64,000 bases of DNA from Patescibacteria group bacterium (GCA_036835125.1 DAITMO010000001.1:127508-191507), one strand, 5' to 3'; shown: positions 45,497 through 51,800, counted from the first letter of the stretch. Notes: generated by a model not told the origin, from the letters alone. Program-made: numbers and translations.

Positions 45497-46933
45497 TTGC
45501 TTCACAAATCTAAAAATAAAATGGATAAAAATAATACAAATCAAACGCGTCCACCCATTGTAGTTGTACTTGGGCATGTTGATCATGGAAAAACAACACT
45601 CCTTGACGCAATAAGAAAAACCAATGTAACAGCAAAGGAAGCTGGTGGAATTACTCAAAAAATTGGGGCCTCTGTAGTTGAAACAAAAGAAGGCAAAAAA
45701 ATAACATTCATTGATACTCCAGGACACGCTGCTTTTACCAAGATGAGAGGAAGAGGGGCCCAAGTTGCAGATATTGCAGTTTTGGTTGTAGCCCAAGACG
45801 ATGGAGTCAAACCTCAAACAAAAGAAGCTTTGGAAATAATTAAAGAAACAGGTATTCCCTTCATTGTTGCAGGAACAAAATCTGATGTAGCAGGAGTCAG
45901 TGCCGAGAAGCTTCAAGGGGAACTTGAAAAAGAAGAAGTCTATTTTGAAGGAAGAGGAGGAAACATTCCTTTTGTCTCAGTCTCAGCAAGAAATAGTACT
46001 GGAATAACAGAACTTTTAGAAATGCTCACCCTAATGGCAGACGTTGCAGAACTTAAAGGAGATCCTAACGCCCCAGTTGAAGCAGTAGTTATTGAATCAG
46101 GAAAAGATAAAATGGGATCTACCGCCACAGTTGTTGTAAGACAGGGAAGCATAAAAGTGGGAGAGGCAGTGTTTGCAGAGGAGCTACCTTGTAAAGTTAG
46201 AGCCCTATTTGATGATAAAGGAAAGGGAATTAAGGAAGTCACTCCCGGCCTCCCTGCAGGAGTTTTTGGTTTTACTGATGTTCCAACAGTTGGGGCTACA
46301 GTTCTTTCTATGCCCCATAAAGGTGAAGAAGTTGAAAAAAAGGTAAGAGGAACATTTGATTTAAGACGTTTAAAAGACGATGAAATTCCTGTAATTATAA
46401 AAGCTGATAATGCAGGTTCCCTTGAAGCTATTATTGCTTCCCTTCCACCAAGAATTGTTGTTGTTGGTCAGGGGGTGGGAGACGTGACAGCAAGTGACAT
46501 AATTGATGCAAAAACAGGAAATGCCTATGTATTTGTATTTGAAGCAAAAATACCAAATGACATAGTTAAGCTTGCAGAAGCGGAAAAGATAAAGGTTGAA
46601 AGATTCCAAATTATTTATGAGCTCTTGCAAAAGTTGGATGAAATCCTCAAAAAAGGACAGGTTATAGAGCTTGGACACGCAGAAGTTTTAGCAAGCTTCC
46701 CATTTGATCACAAGAAGGTTGCAGGATGTAAAGTAATTGATGGAAGGTTGTCAAAAGGCGACGCACTTATTATTAAAAGAGAAGATAAAGAAATAGGCAA
46801 AGGTAAAGCAACTTCTCTTAGAAAACAAAAAACTGAAGTAGCAAGTGTAGGTCAATCAGAAGAATTTGGTGTGATAATAGATCCCCAACTTGATTTTCAG
46901 GTAGGAGATATAATAACTTCAATCTCCAAATAA
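45497..46933 (+). CDS. infB: translation initiation factor IF-2 (short form lacking N-terminal domains)
   Basis: G domain [34 protein letters not shown]-like GTKSD. The last 8 codons lie inside a duplicated segment (see findings). Confidence 0.92.
46887..46933 (+). repeat. direct repeat copy A (22-bp perfect core aacttgattttcaggtaggaga + divergent in-frame infB tail)
   Basis: The 22-bp core is identical to 49860-49881. The continuation encodes DIITSISK* for copy A and DVIVSVAR* for copy B. Confidence 0.8.
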
Positions 46934-46962
46934 TTGACTTCAAAGCCTTCCTGGCGTACACT
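46934..46962 (+). promoter_or_regulatory. candidate sigma70 promoter for DGR target gene (TTGACT, 17 nt spacer, TACACT)
   Basis: TTGACT at 46934-46939 and TACACT at 46957-46962. A short hairpin ccgcaaaagcgg at 47033-47044 and a GAAAGGAAG RBS precede the ATG at 47062. Confidence 0.45.
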
Positions 46963-47061
46963 ATGGGTCTGTACATTGAAATTTAAAGTGCGAGGGGGCC
47001 TAATACTCCAAGGTTTGGAGTAATTTTTATATCCGCAAAAGCGGAAGAAAGGAAGTGTGCG

Positions 47062-47973
47062 ATGACAACTAATAAGTTGATCACGCAAGGTCAGGTAAGG
47101 CAGATCACAGGTTTTGGGGCTGACGTAATTGAGAAGGTTCTCGATGATCTTGGGCTTGATAAAAAAGGCGCCCAGGCTGTCATCGGCCGTGGTGGTGAGT
47201 TTGGAAGTTTAATTATGCCTTCCATACTCTCTGCGCTACAGAGCCTTTCAGTTTCTGAACGGTTCAAAGATGAAGAAGTTGATTCCAGATATGGATATCT
47301 CTCCGGTTATAAACCGAAGGGTTTGAATGAACAAATGAACCAACTTCGAATCCTGTTTCCAGGCATAGGATTTTGCAATCAAGATCTGTTCACACAGATC
47401 GAGAGAGATGACGTCAAATTGCCAAAACATGCCGAAGGTTGGTTTGCCATCCCCAACTGGATGAGAAACCCGCAGATTTTTGGTACGACCTACAGTGATG
47501 CCCTTCTCAAAGTGCTTAATATGATCAAAAAAGCCAGAAACGGCAAGTTTTACAACTACCGTGAAGGTCAGATAAACGAGAAGAACATTCACCAGTCGGA
47601 CCGAACCAGGGAGTTTTGGAAAAAACTCTCAAATGATCAGGGAAATCCTGATATTTTGATTGTTCCTGCACAGTTTGGCATCCGTCACCGTGGTCGATCT
47701 GTTCGACGCGCTTGCGAAATTTTTGTCGGGAACGAATTCGGTCTTGGCGCATTTGCTGTTGGTGTTATGATCCTGACGCACCCTGAACGTCTTCAGAATT
47801 TTGACGATCTTTGGATCGACTGCGCGGGTGATGAATTTGCAGCAAATGCCGATGGCGACTGTTCGAGGGCTCCATATTTCGGGTTCGGCGATAGTGATAT
47901 CAAGGTTGGCACGGGATGGGTTGACGATGCGGATTCGGATTATGGTTCGGCATCGGGGTTCCTTCCGCAGTAA
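47062..47973 (+). CDS. DGR target (variable) protein; C-terminal variable region
   Basis: 303-aa ORF with noticeably higher GC than its surroundings. Its last about 41 codons (47847-47970) are duplicated downstream as the template repeat, with differences at TR adenines. Confidence 0.75.
   Translation: MTTNKLITQGQVRQITGFGADVIEKVLDDLGLDKKGAQAVIGRGGEFGSLIMPSILSALQSLSVSERFKDEEVDSRYGYLSGYKPKGLNEQMNQLRILFPGIGFCNQDLFTQIERDDVKLPKHAEGWFAIPNWMRNPQIFGTTYSDALLKVLNMIKKARNGKFYNYREGQINEKNIHQSDRTREFWKKLSNDQGNPDILIVPAQFGIRHRGRSVRRACEIFVGNEFGLGAFAVGVMILTHPERLQNFDDLWIDCAGDEFAANADGDCSRAPYFGFGDSDIKVGTGWVDDADSDYGSASGFLPQ
47847..47970 (+). repeat. DGR variable repeat (VR)
   Basis: 124-bp near-copy of 48358-48481. 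There are 12 mismatches, and 10 of them are A in TR to G/C in VR. Template Asn codons AAC/AAT correspond to GGC/GAT in the VR. Confidence 0.85.
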
Positions 47974-48033
47974 ATTTTGGTATTTGGATACTTGAGTCTT
48001 TTTGATTTTTTGATATCTTGTGTCCGCCAATTT

Positions 48034-48069
48034 GGGGGTTATTCGCAATGTGCAATATGAATAACCCCC
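48034..48069 (+). terminator. GC-rich hairpin (10-bp perfect stem gggggttatt/aataaccccc, 16-nt loop) followed by T-tract; terminator and/or DGR cruciform element
   Basis: The stem is at 48034-48043 and 48060-48069, followed by gttttatttctt. It lies 60 nt downstream of the target gene stop. Confidence 0.6.
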
Positions 48070-48357
48070 GTTTTATTTCTTCAAAATAATTTTGATATAC
48101 TAATATGGGTTTTGGCTAGTGAACAACAGTTTAAGAATTGTTGTCGCCAAATTCTCCTTATAAACAACCAGAATTTTAGTGATTACCGGTTTCTAAAAGT
48201 GTGTTGTACTGAGGGGAGATACTGCTTATTTCTATCTAGTGCAGATTTCTACTTTGTTAGGATGCTGCCAAATAAAATACAAGATAAAGAAGATATAAAT
48301 TTATTACAGTAAACTTCAATATCTGGTGAGAAAAGATGGATGGAAATAATATTTTGT

Positions 48358-48481
48358 TGCCGATGGCGACTTTTCGAAGGCTCCATATTTCAGGTTCAAC
48401 GATAGTGATATCAAATTTGACACGGAATGGGTTGACAATGCGAATTCGAATTATGGTTCGGCATCGGGGTTCCTTCCGAAG
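48358..48481 (+). repeat. DGR template repeat (TR)
   Basis: Noncoding copy of the VR that carries adenines at all but two mismatch positions. It lies between the target gene and the avd/RT genes. Confidence 0.85.
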
Positions 48482-48499
48482 TTTCTCCCCTGAGTGACT

Positions 48500-48868
48500 T
48501 TAGATAGTTGAACGCAACCACCCCCCTAACATACGTCCAATTTCGTCAAGTTTTTCTTGAAGATAAATATATTTATTAATATTAATTATTTTTGTGTCTT
48601 TTGCCAATCTAACCAAAATTTTTAGCATATTAAGTTTGTGACTAGTATTCTCCAATATTTCCAATTTTTTGATTTTGGAAGAAGAAGTTGTTGTCAAAAT
48701 TCCCTCTAAAATTTCTAAAGTTGTATTTTCTACCCTTTGCCAAATGGTACAACGGTCTTGTTTTGGAATCGAATTTCTAAGTTTGTGAATTTCTTTATAC
48801 ACTTCATATGTTTGTATAAAAATGGGTGTGTCAAAAAATTCCGACATAATATGAAAATTTATCTTCAA
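48500..48868 (-). CDS. avd: four-helix-bundle protein (Avd-like accessory variability determinant, TIGR02436 / 23S rRNA IVS protein family)
   Basis: 122 aa. FIQTYEVYKEIHKLRNSIPKQDRCTIWQRVENTTLEILEGI fits the four-helix-bundle family that accompanies DGR RTs. It sits between the TR and the RT on the opposite strand. Confidence 0.65.
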   Translation of the reverse strand: MKINFHIMSEFFDTPIFIQTYEVYKEIHKLRNSIPKQDRCTIWQRVENTTLEILEGILTTTSSSKIKKLEILENTSHKLNMLKILVRLAKDTKIININKYIYLQEKLDEIGRMLGGWLRSTI

Positions 48869-48891
48869 AAAGAAAATTTTCTGACAAATTC

Positions 48892-49860
48892 ATGAAAATT
48901 TATAGAAATGTCTTTGAGAAAATAGTTACTTTGGAAAACCTACTTAATGCTTGGAAAGACTTCAGTCATGATAAACGAAAGAAAAAAGATGTTCAAGGGT
49001 TTGAAATTAAACTTGAAGAAAATATTTTTGAGCTTTATAGAGAATTGAAGGCTGGAAATTATAAACATAGCTCATATAAACCTTTTTATATTCAAGACCC
49101 AAAACAGAGACTGATTCATAAAGCAAGTGTTCGAGATAGAATCGTTCATCATGCGATTTATTCAATTCTAAATCCCATTTTTGAATCTATGTTTATTGCA
49201 AATTCTTTTTCCTGCAGAGTTGGAAAAGGAACACATAAAGGAGTTGAAACTTTAAGAAATATGTTAAGAAAGGTTAGCAAAAACGATACTAGAAAATGTT
49301 TTGCTTTAAAGTGTGATATCAAGAAGTTTTTTGATAGCATTGACCACAAAATTTTAATGGAAATTTTATGTAAAAAAATTAAAGACAATAATGTTAGTGG
49401 GCTGCTATCCGAAATTGTTGAAAGTTACCACCCAAAAGGAATGGGAATTCCTATTGGCAATTTAACTTCACAGATTTTTGCAAACATTTATCTAAATGAA
49501 TTTGACCAGTTTATAAAACATAAGCTAAAAGTAAAAAATTATATTCGTTATACAGATGACTTTATTATAGTTAGCAATAACAAAAATTATTTAGAGAGTT
49601 TGATTTATCCGATAGATAATTTTTTAAAATTGAATCTTAAATTATTTCTCCATCCTCAGAAAACTTTGGTTAGAAAATATTCTCAAGGGATAGATTTTTT
49701 GGGATATGTAATTTTCCCACATTATTTAGTATTAAGAACAAAAACAAAGAAAAGGGTTTTCCAAAGGATAAATAACAAAAATCTTCCCTCATATTTAGGT
49801 GTTTTATCGCATGCGAATAGCTATGAGTTGACGAAAAGACTAATTTTCTTGGTAACTTAA
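48892..49860 (+). CDS. DGR-type reverse transcriptase
   Basis: RT motifs 1-7 are present: PKQRLIHKASVRDRIVHHA, SFSCRVGKGTHKG, KCDIKKFFDSIDH, the DGR-specific GIPIGNLTSQIFANIYLNEFD (I/LGxxxSQ), RYTDDFII (YxDD) and LHPQKT. Confidence 0.9.
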   Translation: MKIYRNVFEKIVTLENLLNAWKDFSHDKRKKKDVQGFEIKLEENIFELYRELKAGNYKHSSYKPFYIQDPKQRLIHKASVRDRIVHHAIYSILNPIFESMFIANSFSCRVGKGTHKGVETLRNMLRKVSKNDTRKCFALKCDIKKFFDSIDHKILMEILCKKIKDNNVSGLLSEIVESYHPKGMGIPIGNLTSQIFANIYLNEFDQFIKHKLKVKNYIRYTDDFIIVSNNKNYLESLIYPIDNFLKLNLKLFLHPQKTLVRKYSQGIDFLGYVIFPHYLVLRTKTKKRVFQRINNKNLPSYLGVLSHANSYELTKRLIFLVT

Positions 49861-49906
49861 ACTTGATTTTCAGGTAGGAGACGTGATAGTATCGGTCGCT
49901 AGGTAA
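49860..49906 (+). repeat. direct repeat copy B (22-bp core + alternative in-frame infB 3' end, DVIVSVAR*)
   Basis: Identical to 46887-46908 over 22 bp. The next 25 nt are about 50% identical to copy A, yet they keep the IF-2 reading frame and a stop codon. Confidence 0.8.
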
Positions 49907-49941
49907 TTAGGTTTGTAATCTGCCTCATTTTTAATATATAA

Positions 49942-50904
49942 ATGGAAAATTCTCTTTTATCTTTAATAGATTCTGCGTCTTCAGTTCTTGTTGTTTTGCC
50001 AAATAAACCCTATTTTGATCAAGTTGCAGCTGGTCTTTCCCTTTATCTCTCGATCCATGACAGGAAAGACGTAAATATCTATTGTCCAGCCCCAATGATG
50101 GTTGGATTCAATAGACTCATAGGAATAGACAAGATCTCAGAGGAAATGGGAAAGAAAAACTTAACCATAAAATTTGCAGGATTTGATGCAGCCAACATCG
50201 ATAAAGTGGGATACGATATTGAAAATGGAGAATTCAAACTCACAGTAACTCCAAAATCAGGCTTTACCTCCCCAACAAAAGAACAAATAGTAACAGATTA
50301 TTCAGGAGTTTCAGCAGACTTAGTGATCCTTATTGGTGGAGCAAATGACAGTCACTTCCCGATTTTAGAAAATGCAGATTTGGCAAACTCAAAAATTGCA
50401 CACATTGGAACAAGAGTACTGGAAGCAAAGCGAGAAATCCTTTCCTTTGCAAAACCAGGTTCAACAACAAGTGAGTTAGTAGCAAGTATTATTAAAGACA
50501 ATAATCTTCCAGTAGATCCAGACGTTGCAACAAACTTAGTAATGGGAATTGAAGATGGAAGTAGTAACTTTAGTGGGAGCGAAGTAACTCCTGAGACTTT
50601 TGAAACATTTGCATACTTACTTAGAAATGGTGGTCAAAGAATTCCAAAAGTTAAGCTTTCCCCCGCAAGCTTCCCAGCAGGAGCAATTCCAGCCAAGCCA
50701 TACAATCAACCAGTAAGACAAGAGACTCCAAAGGTTCAACCAATAGCACAGGTAGAAGATCAAAGAGAGTCGGTAACTCCTGTTGCCCAAGTAGAAACAC
50801 AACCAAATAGACCATCGGGTGAGATGGGAATTGAAACCCCAGAAATCAATCCACCAGACGATTGGCTTCAACCAAAGATTTTTAAGGGAACTAACGTAAG
50901 CTAA
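49942..50904 (+). CDS. hypothetical protein, possibly degenerate DHH/NrnA-like, with Pro/Gln-rich C-terminal tail
   Basis: Its position after infB matches conserved infB-rbfA-DHH synteny. There is weak similarity to the DHH family N-terminus, and the canonical DHH residues are not evident. Confidence 0.3.
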   Translation: MENSLLSLIDSASSVLVVLPNKPYFDQVAAGLSLYLSIHDRKDVNIYCPAPMMVGFNRLIGIDKISEEMGKKNLTIKFAGFDAANIDKVGYDIENGEFKLTVTPKSGFTSPTKEQIVTDYSGVSADLVILIGGANDSHFPILENADLANSKIAHIGTRVLEAKREILSFAKPGSTTSELVASIIKDNNLPVDPDVATNLVMGIEDGSSNFSGSEVTPETFETFAYLLRNGGQRIPKVKLSPASFPAGAIPAKPYNQPVRQETPKVQPIAQVEDQRESVTPVAQVETQPNRPSGEMGIETPEINPPDDWLQPKIFKGTNVS

Positions 50905-51033
50905 CTTCAATAAACTTGCAAATTATCCTGTAGTTGTCCTATACTTCCCCCAGTTCTTTAAAATGTTAAGGGACCCCTCAGCTTGCGGGAAGCAAGAAAT
51001 TTCTGAGCTATAAGCTCAAGAAAGGTTTGGTGT

Positions 51034-51609
51034 GTGATGAAGTACGGTAATTTTACATTGGGTCAGATCGAAGCTGGAATCAATAAAATTGGAGGGGAAG
51101 ACAATTGGATGAAATTGCTCAAGGGAGAACTGAAAGTTGTTCCTGTTGACAAAGAATCAACTGGTAAAACTGCCAAGATATTTTATCCAAAAAGAGTTTT
51201 TCGATCTAAAAAGGGTTTGTATGTTAGTTCGAACTTCATTAACAAGATCGTAGAAGTTGCTAAGCCAACAGAGGCTGGAAGGATATTTCTAGAAGTATCT
51301 TATGTGAAACTGACAAAATCTGTTACTGGTAAAGAACTCTTGCTAGATAACATGGATCAAGTTTGGGACTCAACCATCTTTTGCTTATGGTTAAATACCA
51401 AATTGAAACAACAATCAAATGGTCAAAATGGATCTTTCCTTACCAATGGTTGTGGAAATCTTTTTCTAGTTGGAAGAATTGACATAAAGGTCTTTGTTGT
51501 CAGCGTCAGCTGGAATTCGATCCCTCGGAAGTGGTACGTCAGCGCTTGGGATCTAGGCTACGGATGGAATGCTGGTAATCGCTTCTTCTCGAAACCGATT
51601 GTTTTTTGA
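51034..51609 (+). CDS. hypothetical protein
   Basis: 191 aa with no recognised family. Its 3' end is compositionally GC-richer. Confidence 0.3.
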   Translation: MMKYGNFTLGQIEAGINKIGGEDNWMKLLKGELKVVPVDKESTGKTAKIFYPKRVFRSKKGLYVSSNFINKIVEVAKPTEAGRIFLEVSYVKLTKSVTGKELLLDNMDQVWDSTIFCLWLNTKLKQQSNGQNGSFLTNGCGNLFLVGRIDIKVFVVSVSWNSIPRKWYVSAWDLGYGWNAGNRFFSKPIVF

Positions 51610-51645
51610 GCCTTTGGCCTTTTGAAAAATTGGTGGTACAAATAA

Positions 51646-51693
51646 CCCCTGATTTGTTGTCATTATGACATTAAGATCAGGGGTTTTCTTTTG
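51646..51693 (+). terminator. rho-independent terminator
   Basis: Stem cccctgat at 51646-51653 pairs with atcagggg at 51676-51683. An inner gtcat/atgac stem is present. It is followed by TTTTCTTTT. Confidence 0.6.
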
Positions 51694-51800
51694 GTTGAAA
51701 ATTTTAACCTTTGTGTTTTAGCTTTGAATGTGGTAATATACCAAAGATGAAATCAAAGTTTATCTTGAAATAGCTTTACATTGATTCTCATGACACAAAT

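Follow-up and report, generated by a model that had tools for sequence, protein, structure and literature searches.

Patescibacteria (Candidate Phyla Radiation, CPR) are ultrasmall bacteria already known to be rich in diversity-generating retroelements (DGRs), reverse-transcriptase systems that rewrite the tip of one protein at its adenine-coded positions. We analyzed one such element in a stretch of 64,000 nucleotides (nt), one strand, from a Patescibacteria group bacterium (GCA_036835125.1 DAITMO010000001.1:127508-191507). This whole stretch is called the window, and coordinates are window positions unless a locus designation precedes them. An earlier note made from the sequence alone had placed a complete DGR, comprising a target gene with its variable repeat (VR), a template repeat (TR), an Avd-like gene and a reverse transcriptase (RT), directly downstream of infB. 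This core reading was borne out by every test run, and the list of open reading frames (ORFs) and the domain search agree on the position next to infB. The parts of the element are as follows:

47062..47973, + strand: DGR target gene, 303 aa, with a helical N-terminal region followed by a predicted C-type-lectin (CLec)-like C-terminal domain
47847..47971, + strand: VR, target residues 263-303 (the last 41 codons), corresponding to the last three beta-strands of the structural model
48358..48482, + strand: TR, non-coding, with 31 adenines
48500..48868, - strand: avd accessory gene, Avd-like; gene callers start it at ATG 48847, giving 115 aa
48892..49860, + strand: DGR reverse transcriptase, 322 aa, with IPIGNLTSQ and YTDD motifs and a Pfam RVT_1 match

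The locus is a genuine complete DGR, an ordinary further member of a well-populated CPR clade. Very probably, positions 46909-49859 represent an intact DGR of this Patescibacteria clade, carried on a compact cassette that forms a 2973-bp insertion near the end of infB. The cassette contains, in order, its own promoter and leader, the target gene, the TR, the antisense avd and the RT. Both cassette junctions and the repeat pair were found again in other, independently made assemblies of this organism (ENA ERZ724083 and ERZ724081; Logan SRR3330211 and SRR3330207), and are therefore not an assembly artefact. For comparison within the clade we used 80 related loci from GTDB species genomes, designated by L numbers like the other comparison contigs, in which RT, avd and TR were sought within 8 kb of the target gene.

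Repeat pair, reverse transcriptase and Avd

The VR and TR aligned without gaps over 125 nt at 89.6% identity, with 13 mismatches. From TR to VR these were ten A>G, one A>C and two T>G changes, with no C/T or G>A changes. Eleven of the 13 mismatches (85%) lie at TR adenines (hypergeometric P(>=11 of 13)=2.5e-6, given 31 A in 125 nt), above the level of at least 75% of TR/VR mismatches by which DGRs are recognized. The earlier note had described a 124-bp repeat (VR 47847-47970, TR 48358-48481) with 12 mismatches, ten at adenine and nine of these A>G. The repeat, the adenine bias, the two T>G changes and the lack of C/T or G/A changes all stand; the length is 125 nt and the counts are 13, 11 and 10. 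Realignment of the two repeats revealed no ordinary mixed-substitution spectrum, and the tabulation upholds the view that these adenine-specific differences are the hallmark of a DGR.

The TR adenines are distributed over VR-frame codon positions 1, 2 and 3 as 11:16:4, so that 27 of the 31 fall at positions 1 and 2. There are 24 mutable codons, which allow ~1e16 possible peptides. The TR holds four AAY codons, and the codon changes are as had been claimed, AAC to GGC and three AAT to GAT; the sole synonymous change is AAA>AAG. The TR is located 410 nt 5' of the RT start, outside any target-like ORF. VR and TR share an identical, GC-rich 3' end of 29 nt, and homology stops at the stop codon. 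A third VR/TR copy was absent from the 64-kb window. The non-adenine mismatches, at 47861 and 47905, are TTT>TGT (F267C, replacing a nearly invariant Phe) and TTT>GTT, and they suggest that ordinary mutation has added some changes after the most recent homing. Among the non-adenine mismatches of related cassettes, too, T>G is the most frequent class (4 of 11).

In 37 related cassettes with TR/VR pairs of ~130 nt, 642 of 653 mismatches (98.3%) were at adenines, with 62% A>G, 23% A>T and 15% A>C. In the window, 10 of the 11 adenine mismatches are A>G (P=0.04 given this clade rate). A>G dominance is seen across the clade, and the window excess is therefore a lineage trait rather than a product of ordinary transitions.

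The motifs IGNLTSQ and YTDD had suggested an RT of the DGR type, and profile and PDB comparisons confirmed this. Residues 2-295 (294 residues) align to PDB 8ub7, the best PDB match (E 1.5e-53), whose sequence is the product of the Bordetella phage BPP-1 brt gene (bRT); group II RTs match at ~1e-20 and worse. Among NCBIfam models, the RT scored 160 bits against TIGR04416 (cut-off 300), 58 against the retron model (cut-off 235) and 72 against the Drt models (cut-offs 200-390), all far below threshold. No group II intron or retron RNA was detected by Rfam in 46800-50000 or in the whole window. A group II intron does not fit the locus, since the RT is below the family threshold and there is no ribozyme RNA. 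A retron or a defence-associated RT (DRT) system does not fit either, since the neighbours are Avd and a VR-bearing target rather than effectors. The assignment of 48500..48868 as Avd-like also held: the product matches Pfam bAvd at 68 bits (cut-off 40) and PHROG 3206, 'Avd protein of DGR', at E 3.6e-20. The locus thus combines an RT of the DGR clade, a TR/VR pair, a VR at the target 3' end with a non-coding TR near the RT, and Avd.

The earlier note had regarded an avd on the strand opposite to the RT as atypical. This proved to be the rule. An RT lies within 8 kb in 38 of the 80 related loci, and in all 35 loci with both avd and RT the two genes diverge, avd lying antisense between the RT and a TR that is on the same strand as the RT; one viral contig has the same divergent pair. 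The target occurs on either side of this TR-avd-RT module. An architecture designated subtype B3 accounts for 90% of CPR DGRs (Wu et al. 2018, PMC5758913). The avd and RT start codons of the window are 24-45 nt apart (48847-48892). Because these starts are close and divergent, each promoter must lie within the coding region of the other gene, and the TR transcript would run antisense through avd. Promoter-like sites at 48996-48968(-) and 48601-48628(+) are candidates for the avd/RT region, and such sites occur at chance frequency. The only Rfam match, RT-6 antisense to avd (20.9 bits, E 0.2), was considered as a possible TR-spacer RNA and rejected, as it did not recur in eight related cassettes.

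A (GA)6-15 tract was observed in 6 of the 38 related RT genes (L012:10314-10343, L016:9349-9362, L024:9798-9815, L029:6148-6159, L041:10376-10405 and L079:2692-2715). It always occupies the same place, just 5' of the IGNLTSQ motif, and the RT frame is split there in five of the six; the window RT has no such tract. By its sequence, the tract looks like a slipped-strand ON/OFF switch of the hypermutator. Among the 12 top-ranked matches of a literature search, no paper linked DGRs with repeat-mediated phase variation.

Target protein, its fold and its leader

The target protein had been described as lacking a recognisable domain. Consistent with this, it had no matches in Pfam, NCBIfam, PADLOC or PHROGs, and PDB sequence and profile searches returned nothing even at E<=10. 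It lacks a signal peptide as well, which suggests that it stays inside the cell or is exported by an unconventional route. Homologues numbered 2038 at E<=1e-3, all annotated 'hypothetical', of ~300 aa, and from Patescibacteria wherever the organism was named. When 67 of these were aligned, residues 1-260 proved well conserved. In the final 45 residues an invariant scaffold (F, AP, F, F, YGSASG, PQ) alternates with hypervariable positions, and the VR stretch is hypervariable.

The domains to which the target was likened are the Bdellovibrio fibre-tip, many C-type lectin, the Legionella Lcl C-terminal, FGE-type and Treponema TvpA domains. Foldseek searches of PDB and BFVD gave no significant match; FGE and TvpA were nonetheless at the top of the list. 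In the structural model the scaffold carrying the VR is a divergent CLec-like one, of the type used by other DGR targets, and the variable residues are accordingly placed on one of the two kinds of scaffold, C-type-lectin or immunoglobulin, expected of a DGR. The suggestion that the diversified fold may be unusual found no support in this check. CPR targets without recognisable domains have been predicted to be a new CLec variant (Roux et al. 2021, PMC8144416). The modelled fold would place a large 'domain-less' family of Patescibacteria proteins in the C-type-lectin class of variable proteins, and supports the view that all DGR targets use a C-type-lectin scaffold.

The target gene is bounded by the following signals:

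46934..46962, + strand: target-gene promoter-like site TTGACT-17-TACACT, immediately next to the infB stop codon and conserved in L086
46963..47061, + strand: conserved 5' leader with hairpin 1 (47004-47022) followed by a T-tract, hairpin 2 (47032-47045) and a Shine-Dalgarno (SD)-like GAAAGGAAG at 47047-47055
48034..48079, + strand: terminator-like GC-rich hairpin and T-tract, with arms 48034-48044/48059-48069, 63 nt past the VR

The leader is ~80% identical to those of L086 and L005, where the encoded proteins are 41% and 73% identical to the target, respectively. L005 holds the nearest target homologue. It has the promoter -10 hexamer and the sequence 3' of it, the leader, the gene and the terminator in common with the window, in a context that is not infB. 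The terminator-like hairpin folds at -19.1 kcal/mol (z -2.9), and the homologous hairpin is present in L005.

Target genes of Parcubacteria have a conserved 5' leader of their own, ~150 nt upstream in 23 loci (e.g. L017:7848-8008 and L023:7848-8008; alignment A4). It consists of a 22-bp hairpin, in which 18 pairs show compensatory changes, a second hairpin and then GGAGATAACG-ATG. This leader is present with or without a DGR and has no Rfam match. The two-hairpin leader of the window (47004-47045) is analogous and its sequence is different. LOOT RNA (Rfam RF03000) lies <=450 nt from the target gene in nine Parcubacteria loci, accounting for 9 of the 15 matches in 1.1 Mb (P ~4e-5). It is upstream on the minus strand in L009:7566-7704, L010:7547-7694, L022:7545-7688, L025:1614-1761 and L036:2338-2480, and downstream in L027:9028-9176, L033:9038-9177, L039:9028-9170 and L058:3608-3748. 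One LOOT-adjacent locus has no RT, and the window has no LOOT RNA.

Adenine is avoided at synonymous sites across the whole target gene and not in the VR alone. Mean GC content of the target family is 58% vs 42% for the flanks (75 of 75 loci; target genes of L006-L085). At third codon positions, G+C (GC3) is 72.5% and A (A3) 9.9% in the family, vs GC3 41.9% and A3 26.7% in flanking ORFs. The RT and avd of the same cassettes are AT-rich, with an RT GC3 of 39%. Values for the window are 46.5% for the target, 28% for the RT and 38% for the flanks.

Insertion in infB and probable exchange of cassettes

The cassette interrupts infB 15 codons before its end, and the following features mark its boundaries:

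45497..46933, + strand: infB (IF-2), with Pfam GTP_EFTU, IF-2 and EF-G_D2 domains
46887..46935, no strand assigned: left direct-repeat copy (attL-like), in which a 22-nt exact core, AACTTGATTTTCAGGTAGGAGA, gives way to a diverged infB tail brought by the element; this copy ends the functional infB
49860..49908, no strand assigned: right direct-repeat copy (attR-like), the displaced native infB 3' end encoding LDFQVGDVIVSVAR*, with its stop at 49904-49906
49942..50904, + strand: native gene beyond the insertion, which it delimits on the far side; 320 aa, without a known domain, and its homologue is directly 3' of infB in relatives

The last eight codons and the stop of infB (46909-46933, ..DIITSISK*) come from the inserted cassette. 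The right repeat copy begins at the last base of the RT stop codon. The limits first proposed for the element, 46887-49906, match this flanking direct repeat of the infB 3' end; the repeat itself had gone undescribed, and it proved to be the feature of the locus that tells most. The two 49-nt copies agree completely over their initial 22 nt and differ at 12 of the remaining 27 (P=1.9e-4 if differences were placed at random). This pattern fits, on sequence grounds, a crossover between two sequences that had already diverged.

Comparison with relatives supports the same boundaries. Of 120 infB relatives, 118 end as the remnant does (V[IL][VL]SV..), and the I(I/T)SISK ending is confined to the window and P0143. 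The closest infB relatives, P0124 (83%) and P0125 (81%), have empty sites, with infB followed by the homologue of 49942-50904. Empty sites were identified in L088/L089 and L090/L091, and the reconstructed junction matches. The infB stop remnant is 35 nt from the next gene; the distance at empty sites is 37 nt in L090 and 3 nt in L088. P0143, on contig L086 (Logan SRR15035648; L086:1600-2720), belongs to a second Microgenomates lineage and has an insertion at the same infB nucleotide. This insert carries the substitute ..ISISK* tail, the TTGACT-17-TACACT promoter, the two-hairpin leader, a target-like gene (233 aa, without the N-terminal helices), the terminator and the remnant infB tail; TR, avd and RT are absent from it. 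The window infB is 78% identical to that of P0143, which is 83% identical to P0125. The occupied lineages are not nearest relatives; there were either two insertions at this site or at least two precise losses of the insert.

The most likely route of insertion would be recombination of an element-borne infB 3' fragment with the chromosome at the 22-nt identical core. No recombinase was found inside the repeat-bounded segment, in which target, avd and RT are the only ORFs; no search was made for a trans-acting enzyme. The locus therefore has the flanking repeats derived from the target gene and the empty site in relatives that are expected of an integrative islet, without a cognate recombinase in cis.

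Similar boundaries were found around other cassettes of the clade. Imperfect direct repeats of 25-102 nt flank them, with only target, TR, avd and RT between. The L008 repeat (102 nt, 2995-3096/6283-6383) ends in the 3' end of tRNA-Thr, and that of L072 (26 nt, 7707-7732/10975-11000) is the 3' end of tRNA-Ser; further examples are L075 (95 nt, 5682-5776/9103-9197) and L041 (25 nt, 7530-7554/10909-10933). Flanking repeats were present in 6 of 31 loci vs 1 of 93 shuffled-partner controls (P=9e-4). A 31-nt repeat in L016 spans 4.8 kb with unrelated genes and was not taken as a clean boundary of a cassette. A group I intron match just short of its threshold (L008:1555-1755; 46.3 bits, cut-off 50) lies ~1.4 kb upstream of the L008 cassette.

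Cassettes in different GTDB species can be nearly identical. L056:7901-10832 and L059:6565-9495 are 96.9% identical over 2932 bp with flanks at 66-73%. Overall, cassettes were 93-97% identical between species with flanks at 66-81% (L056, L059, L047, L062 and L064). The shared identity runs, with sharp limits, from the promoter -10 to within the terminator loop. The cassettes of L019 and L031 are 83% identical, and their flanks have no homology. The contrast between cassette and flank sequences indicates that the cassette has recently been exchanged horizontally in one piece. No recombinase was present within any of the related repeat-bounded segments. A phage vehicle was unsupported, with one target-family locus among 2.9 M viral contigs.

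The competing account of the infB repeat is that it is the scar of a single ancient illegitimate insertion, a tandem duplication of the infB end that captured DNA and was then inherited vertically with some losses, and is not att-like. We consider this possible and somewhat improbable. L086 and the window have an identical insertion nucleotide and a common substitute tail and leader, there is no integrase in the cassette, and a scan of metagenome contigs with junction 18-mers returned no further copies (116 matches, all chance, none near infB or a target gene). However, the occupied lineages are not closest relatives, so that vertical inheritance requires at least two precise losses, and the distribution of differences between the repeat copies fits crossover of diverged sequences rather than divergence after duplication. 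Furthermore, flanking repeats bound other cassettes, some at the 3' ends of tRNA-Ser and tRNA-Thr and some in intergenic DNA, in excess of the controls, and the sharp-ended identity of cassettes between species also speaks against a single old scar.

A discrete integrase-less cassette moving horizontally is the best-supported reading of these comparisons. A trans-acting recombinase and homology-driven recombination with an element-borne fragment of the host gene are candidates for the mode of integration. A more general proposal can be put forward only tentatively: that the Patescibacteria DGR (~2.9-3.4 kb) is a self-contained, recombinase-less mobile cassette which inserts at the 3' ends of conserved genes via an element-borne copy and is exchanged between species with sharp boundaries. 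If true, it would be a 'hypermutation islet' resembling a cis-mobilizable element (CIME), mobilized in trans or by some undescribed mechanism.

Roughly half of the family members lack RT, avd and TR within 8 kb, many of them with full 8-kb flanks on both sides. They include L007, L015, L021, L022, L042-L044, L053, L054, L067-L069, L073, L078, L080 and L081, among others. These members still show the variable C-terminal pattern; they may be orphans, targets diversified in trans, or genes whose DGR module has been lost.

Activity and comparison with known systems

By analogy with Bordetella phage BPP-1, a TR-containing RNA would probably be co-transcribed with the RT, antisense through avd. The RT-Avd complex would reverse-transcribe it, misincorporating opposite template adenines, and the cDNA would replace the VR with the TR left unchanged. 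Each replacement would re-randomise the 24 mutable codons on the C-terminal strands of the divergent C-type-lectin-like domain. The parts, their family assignments, the adenine-restricted TR/VR differences and the recurrence of this pattern in the 37 related cassettes are observed; the transcription pattern, priming, present-day activity and ligand are inferred.

The target, avd and RT ORFs are all intact and the RT catalytic motifs are present. The earlier view of the element as likely functional also held that it was recently active, and here the indication is slight. Five assemblies of the organism differ by three single-nucleotide polymorphisms (SNPs) in ~22 kb compared, one of them in the VR, 47968 C/A (Q303K), at a TR-adenine site. 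Contig L004 and the window disagree at 2 of 3683 nt, this VR position being one of the two. These data hint at present-day retrohoming of the element.

A number of observations weigh against an intact DGR that is still working and whose insertion is understood. No distinction between an initiation of mutagenic homing site (IMH) and IMH*, and no conserved spacer RNA, could be defined at the locus. The avd product scored 78.3 bits against NCBIfam DivGenRetAVD, just below the cut-off of 80. Two of the 13 mismatches are at T, more than the clade rate of 1.7% non-adenine mismatches predicts (P=0.02). Four of the five assemblies have the same VR, and only 11 of the 31 TR adenines (35%) differ, vs an average of 57% in relatives. 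The mechanism of insertion can only be proposed, because there is no recombinase inside the cassette.

Several of these points would be expected if the DGR were structurally intact and now silent, its VR a frozen product of past homing that drifts by ordinary mutation: the invariance of the VR among independent assemblies, the two T>G mismatches above the clade rate and the low share of changed TR adenines. The frequent lack of RT or TR within 8 kb in the family also implies that loss of the DGR module is common, and L086 keeps merely a target-like gene at the same infB site. Against silence stand the intact ORFs and catalytic motifs, the AAY design retained in the TR, and the position of one of the two L004 SNPs at a TR adenine in the VR. 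We regard a silent element as unlikely. An ordinary segmental duplication, with a non-coding copy decaying under AT-biased mutation beside an unrelated RT (group II, retron or defence), is effectively refuted: all 13 differences have G/C in the VR vs A/T in the TR, as AT pressure on a pseudo-copy predicts, and the RT has sub-threshold matches to group II, retron and DRT models, but 12 of the 13 changes involve G of one strand only and none is C>T, the RT is much nearer BPP-1 bRT than group II and below every curated group II, retron or Drt cut-off, Rfam finds neither group II intron nor retron RNA, avd lies next to the RT, and the adenine-specific changes of the 37 related cassettes include A>T and A>C, which are impossible via AT pressure.

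The complete DGR of the window resembles the prototype, BPP-1 (mtd-avd-TR-brt), in an RT that aligns end to end with bRT, including the I/LGxxxSQ and YxDD motifs, in a four-helix Avd protein, in a ~125-nt adenine-specific TR/VR pair at the target 3' end and in a CLec-type variable domain. It differs in that it is chromosomal in a CPR bacterium whereas BPP-1 is phage-borne, that avd is antisense between TR and RT, that A>G dominates its spectrum, and that its target has no Mtd or FGE sequence signature. Furthermore, no IMH/IMH* pair or adjacent cruciform was identified at the window; its hairpin is terminator-like and lies beyond the VR. Compared with Treponema denticola TvpA and FGE-type CLec proteins, the target has no sequence similarity, lipoprotein signal or FGE-sulfatase Pfam match, and its N-terminal half is a helical region without an assigned function.

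The likeness to CPR and DPANN DGRs extends to host group, compact cassette and inverted avd, the related loci used here come from the same clade, and nothing essential is different in the window element. Surveys of CPR DGRs likewise describe targets without a recognisable transmembrane or Pfam domain (PMC5758913; Roux et al. 2021, DGR clade 2, PMC8144416). An infB insertion with a substitute tail and a remnant is not described in the CPR DGR literature examined (PMC5758913, PMC8144416), nor are flanking repeats at other cassettes or adenine depletion at synonymous sites of the whole target. CIME-like islets and islands at tRNA 3' ends share with the cassette the imperfect direct repeats of a conserved gene's 3' end that bound the inserted DNA, a replacement 3' end that keeps the host gene intact, and empty sites in relatives, and sister cassettes lie at tRNA-Ser and tRNA-Thr 3' ends. 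Unlike them, the window cassette is just 3 kb, has no recombinase or transfer genes, and is inserted in a protein-coding, essential gene, infB.

As a DGR the locus adds little, the target family having thousands of members. It is a clean specimen, with all parts intact within 3 kb, empty sites in the nearest relatives, an infB-tail remnant and a degenerate version at the same nucleotide in a second lineage. Together with the repeat-flanked and near-identical cassettes elsewhere, these clean scars make the spread of DGR cassettes among genomes without obvious phages or integrases testable. Its moderate interest rests on the insertion scars and on the adenine depletion of the target family, the (GA)n tracts of RT genes in relatives, the covarying leader hairpin and the adjacency of LOOT RNA.

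Beyond the native downstream gene, the region up to rpsO (50905-51700) holds an extra ORF at 51034-51609 (190 aa, no known domain). It was considered as a second target-like cassette gene and rejected, its protein being unrelated to the target family. The ORF is absent from the relatives L088 and L090. It has its own promoter-like site and terminator hairpin, and its SD/start context (AAGAAAGGTTTGGTGTGTGATG) differs very little from the one at the L086 cassette gene.

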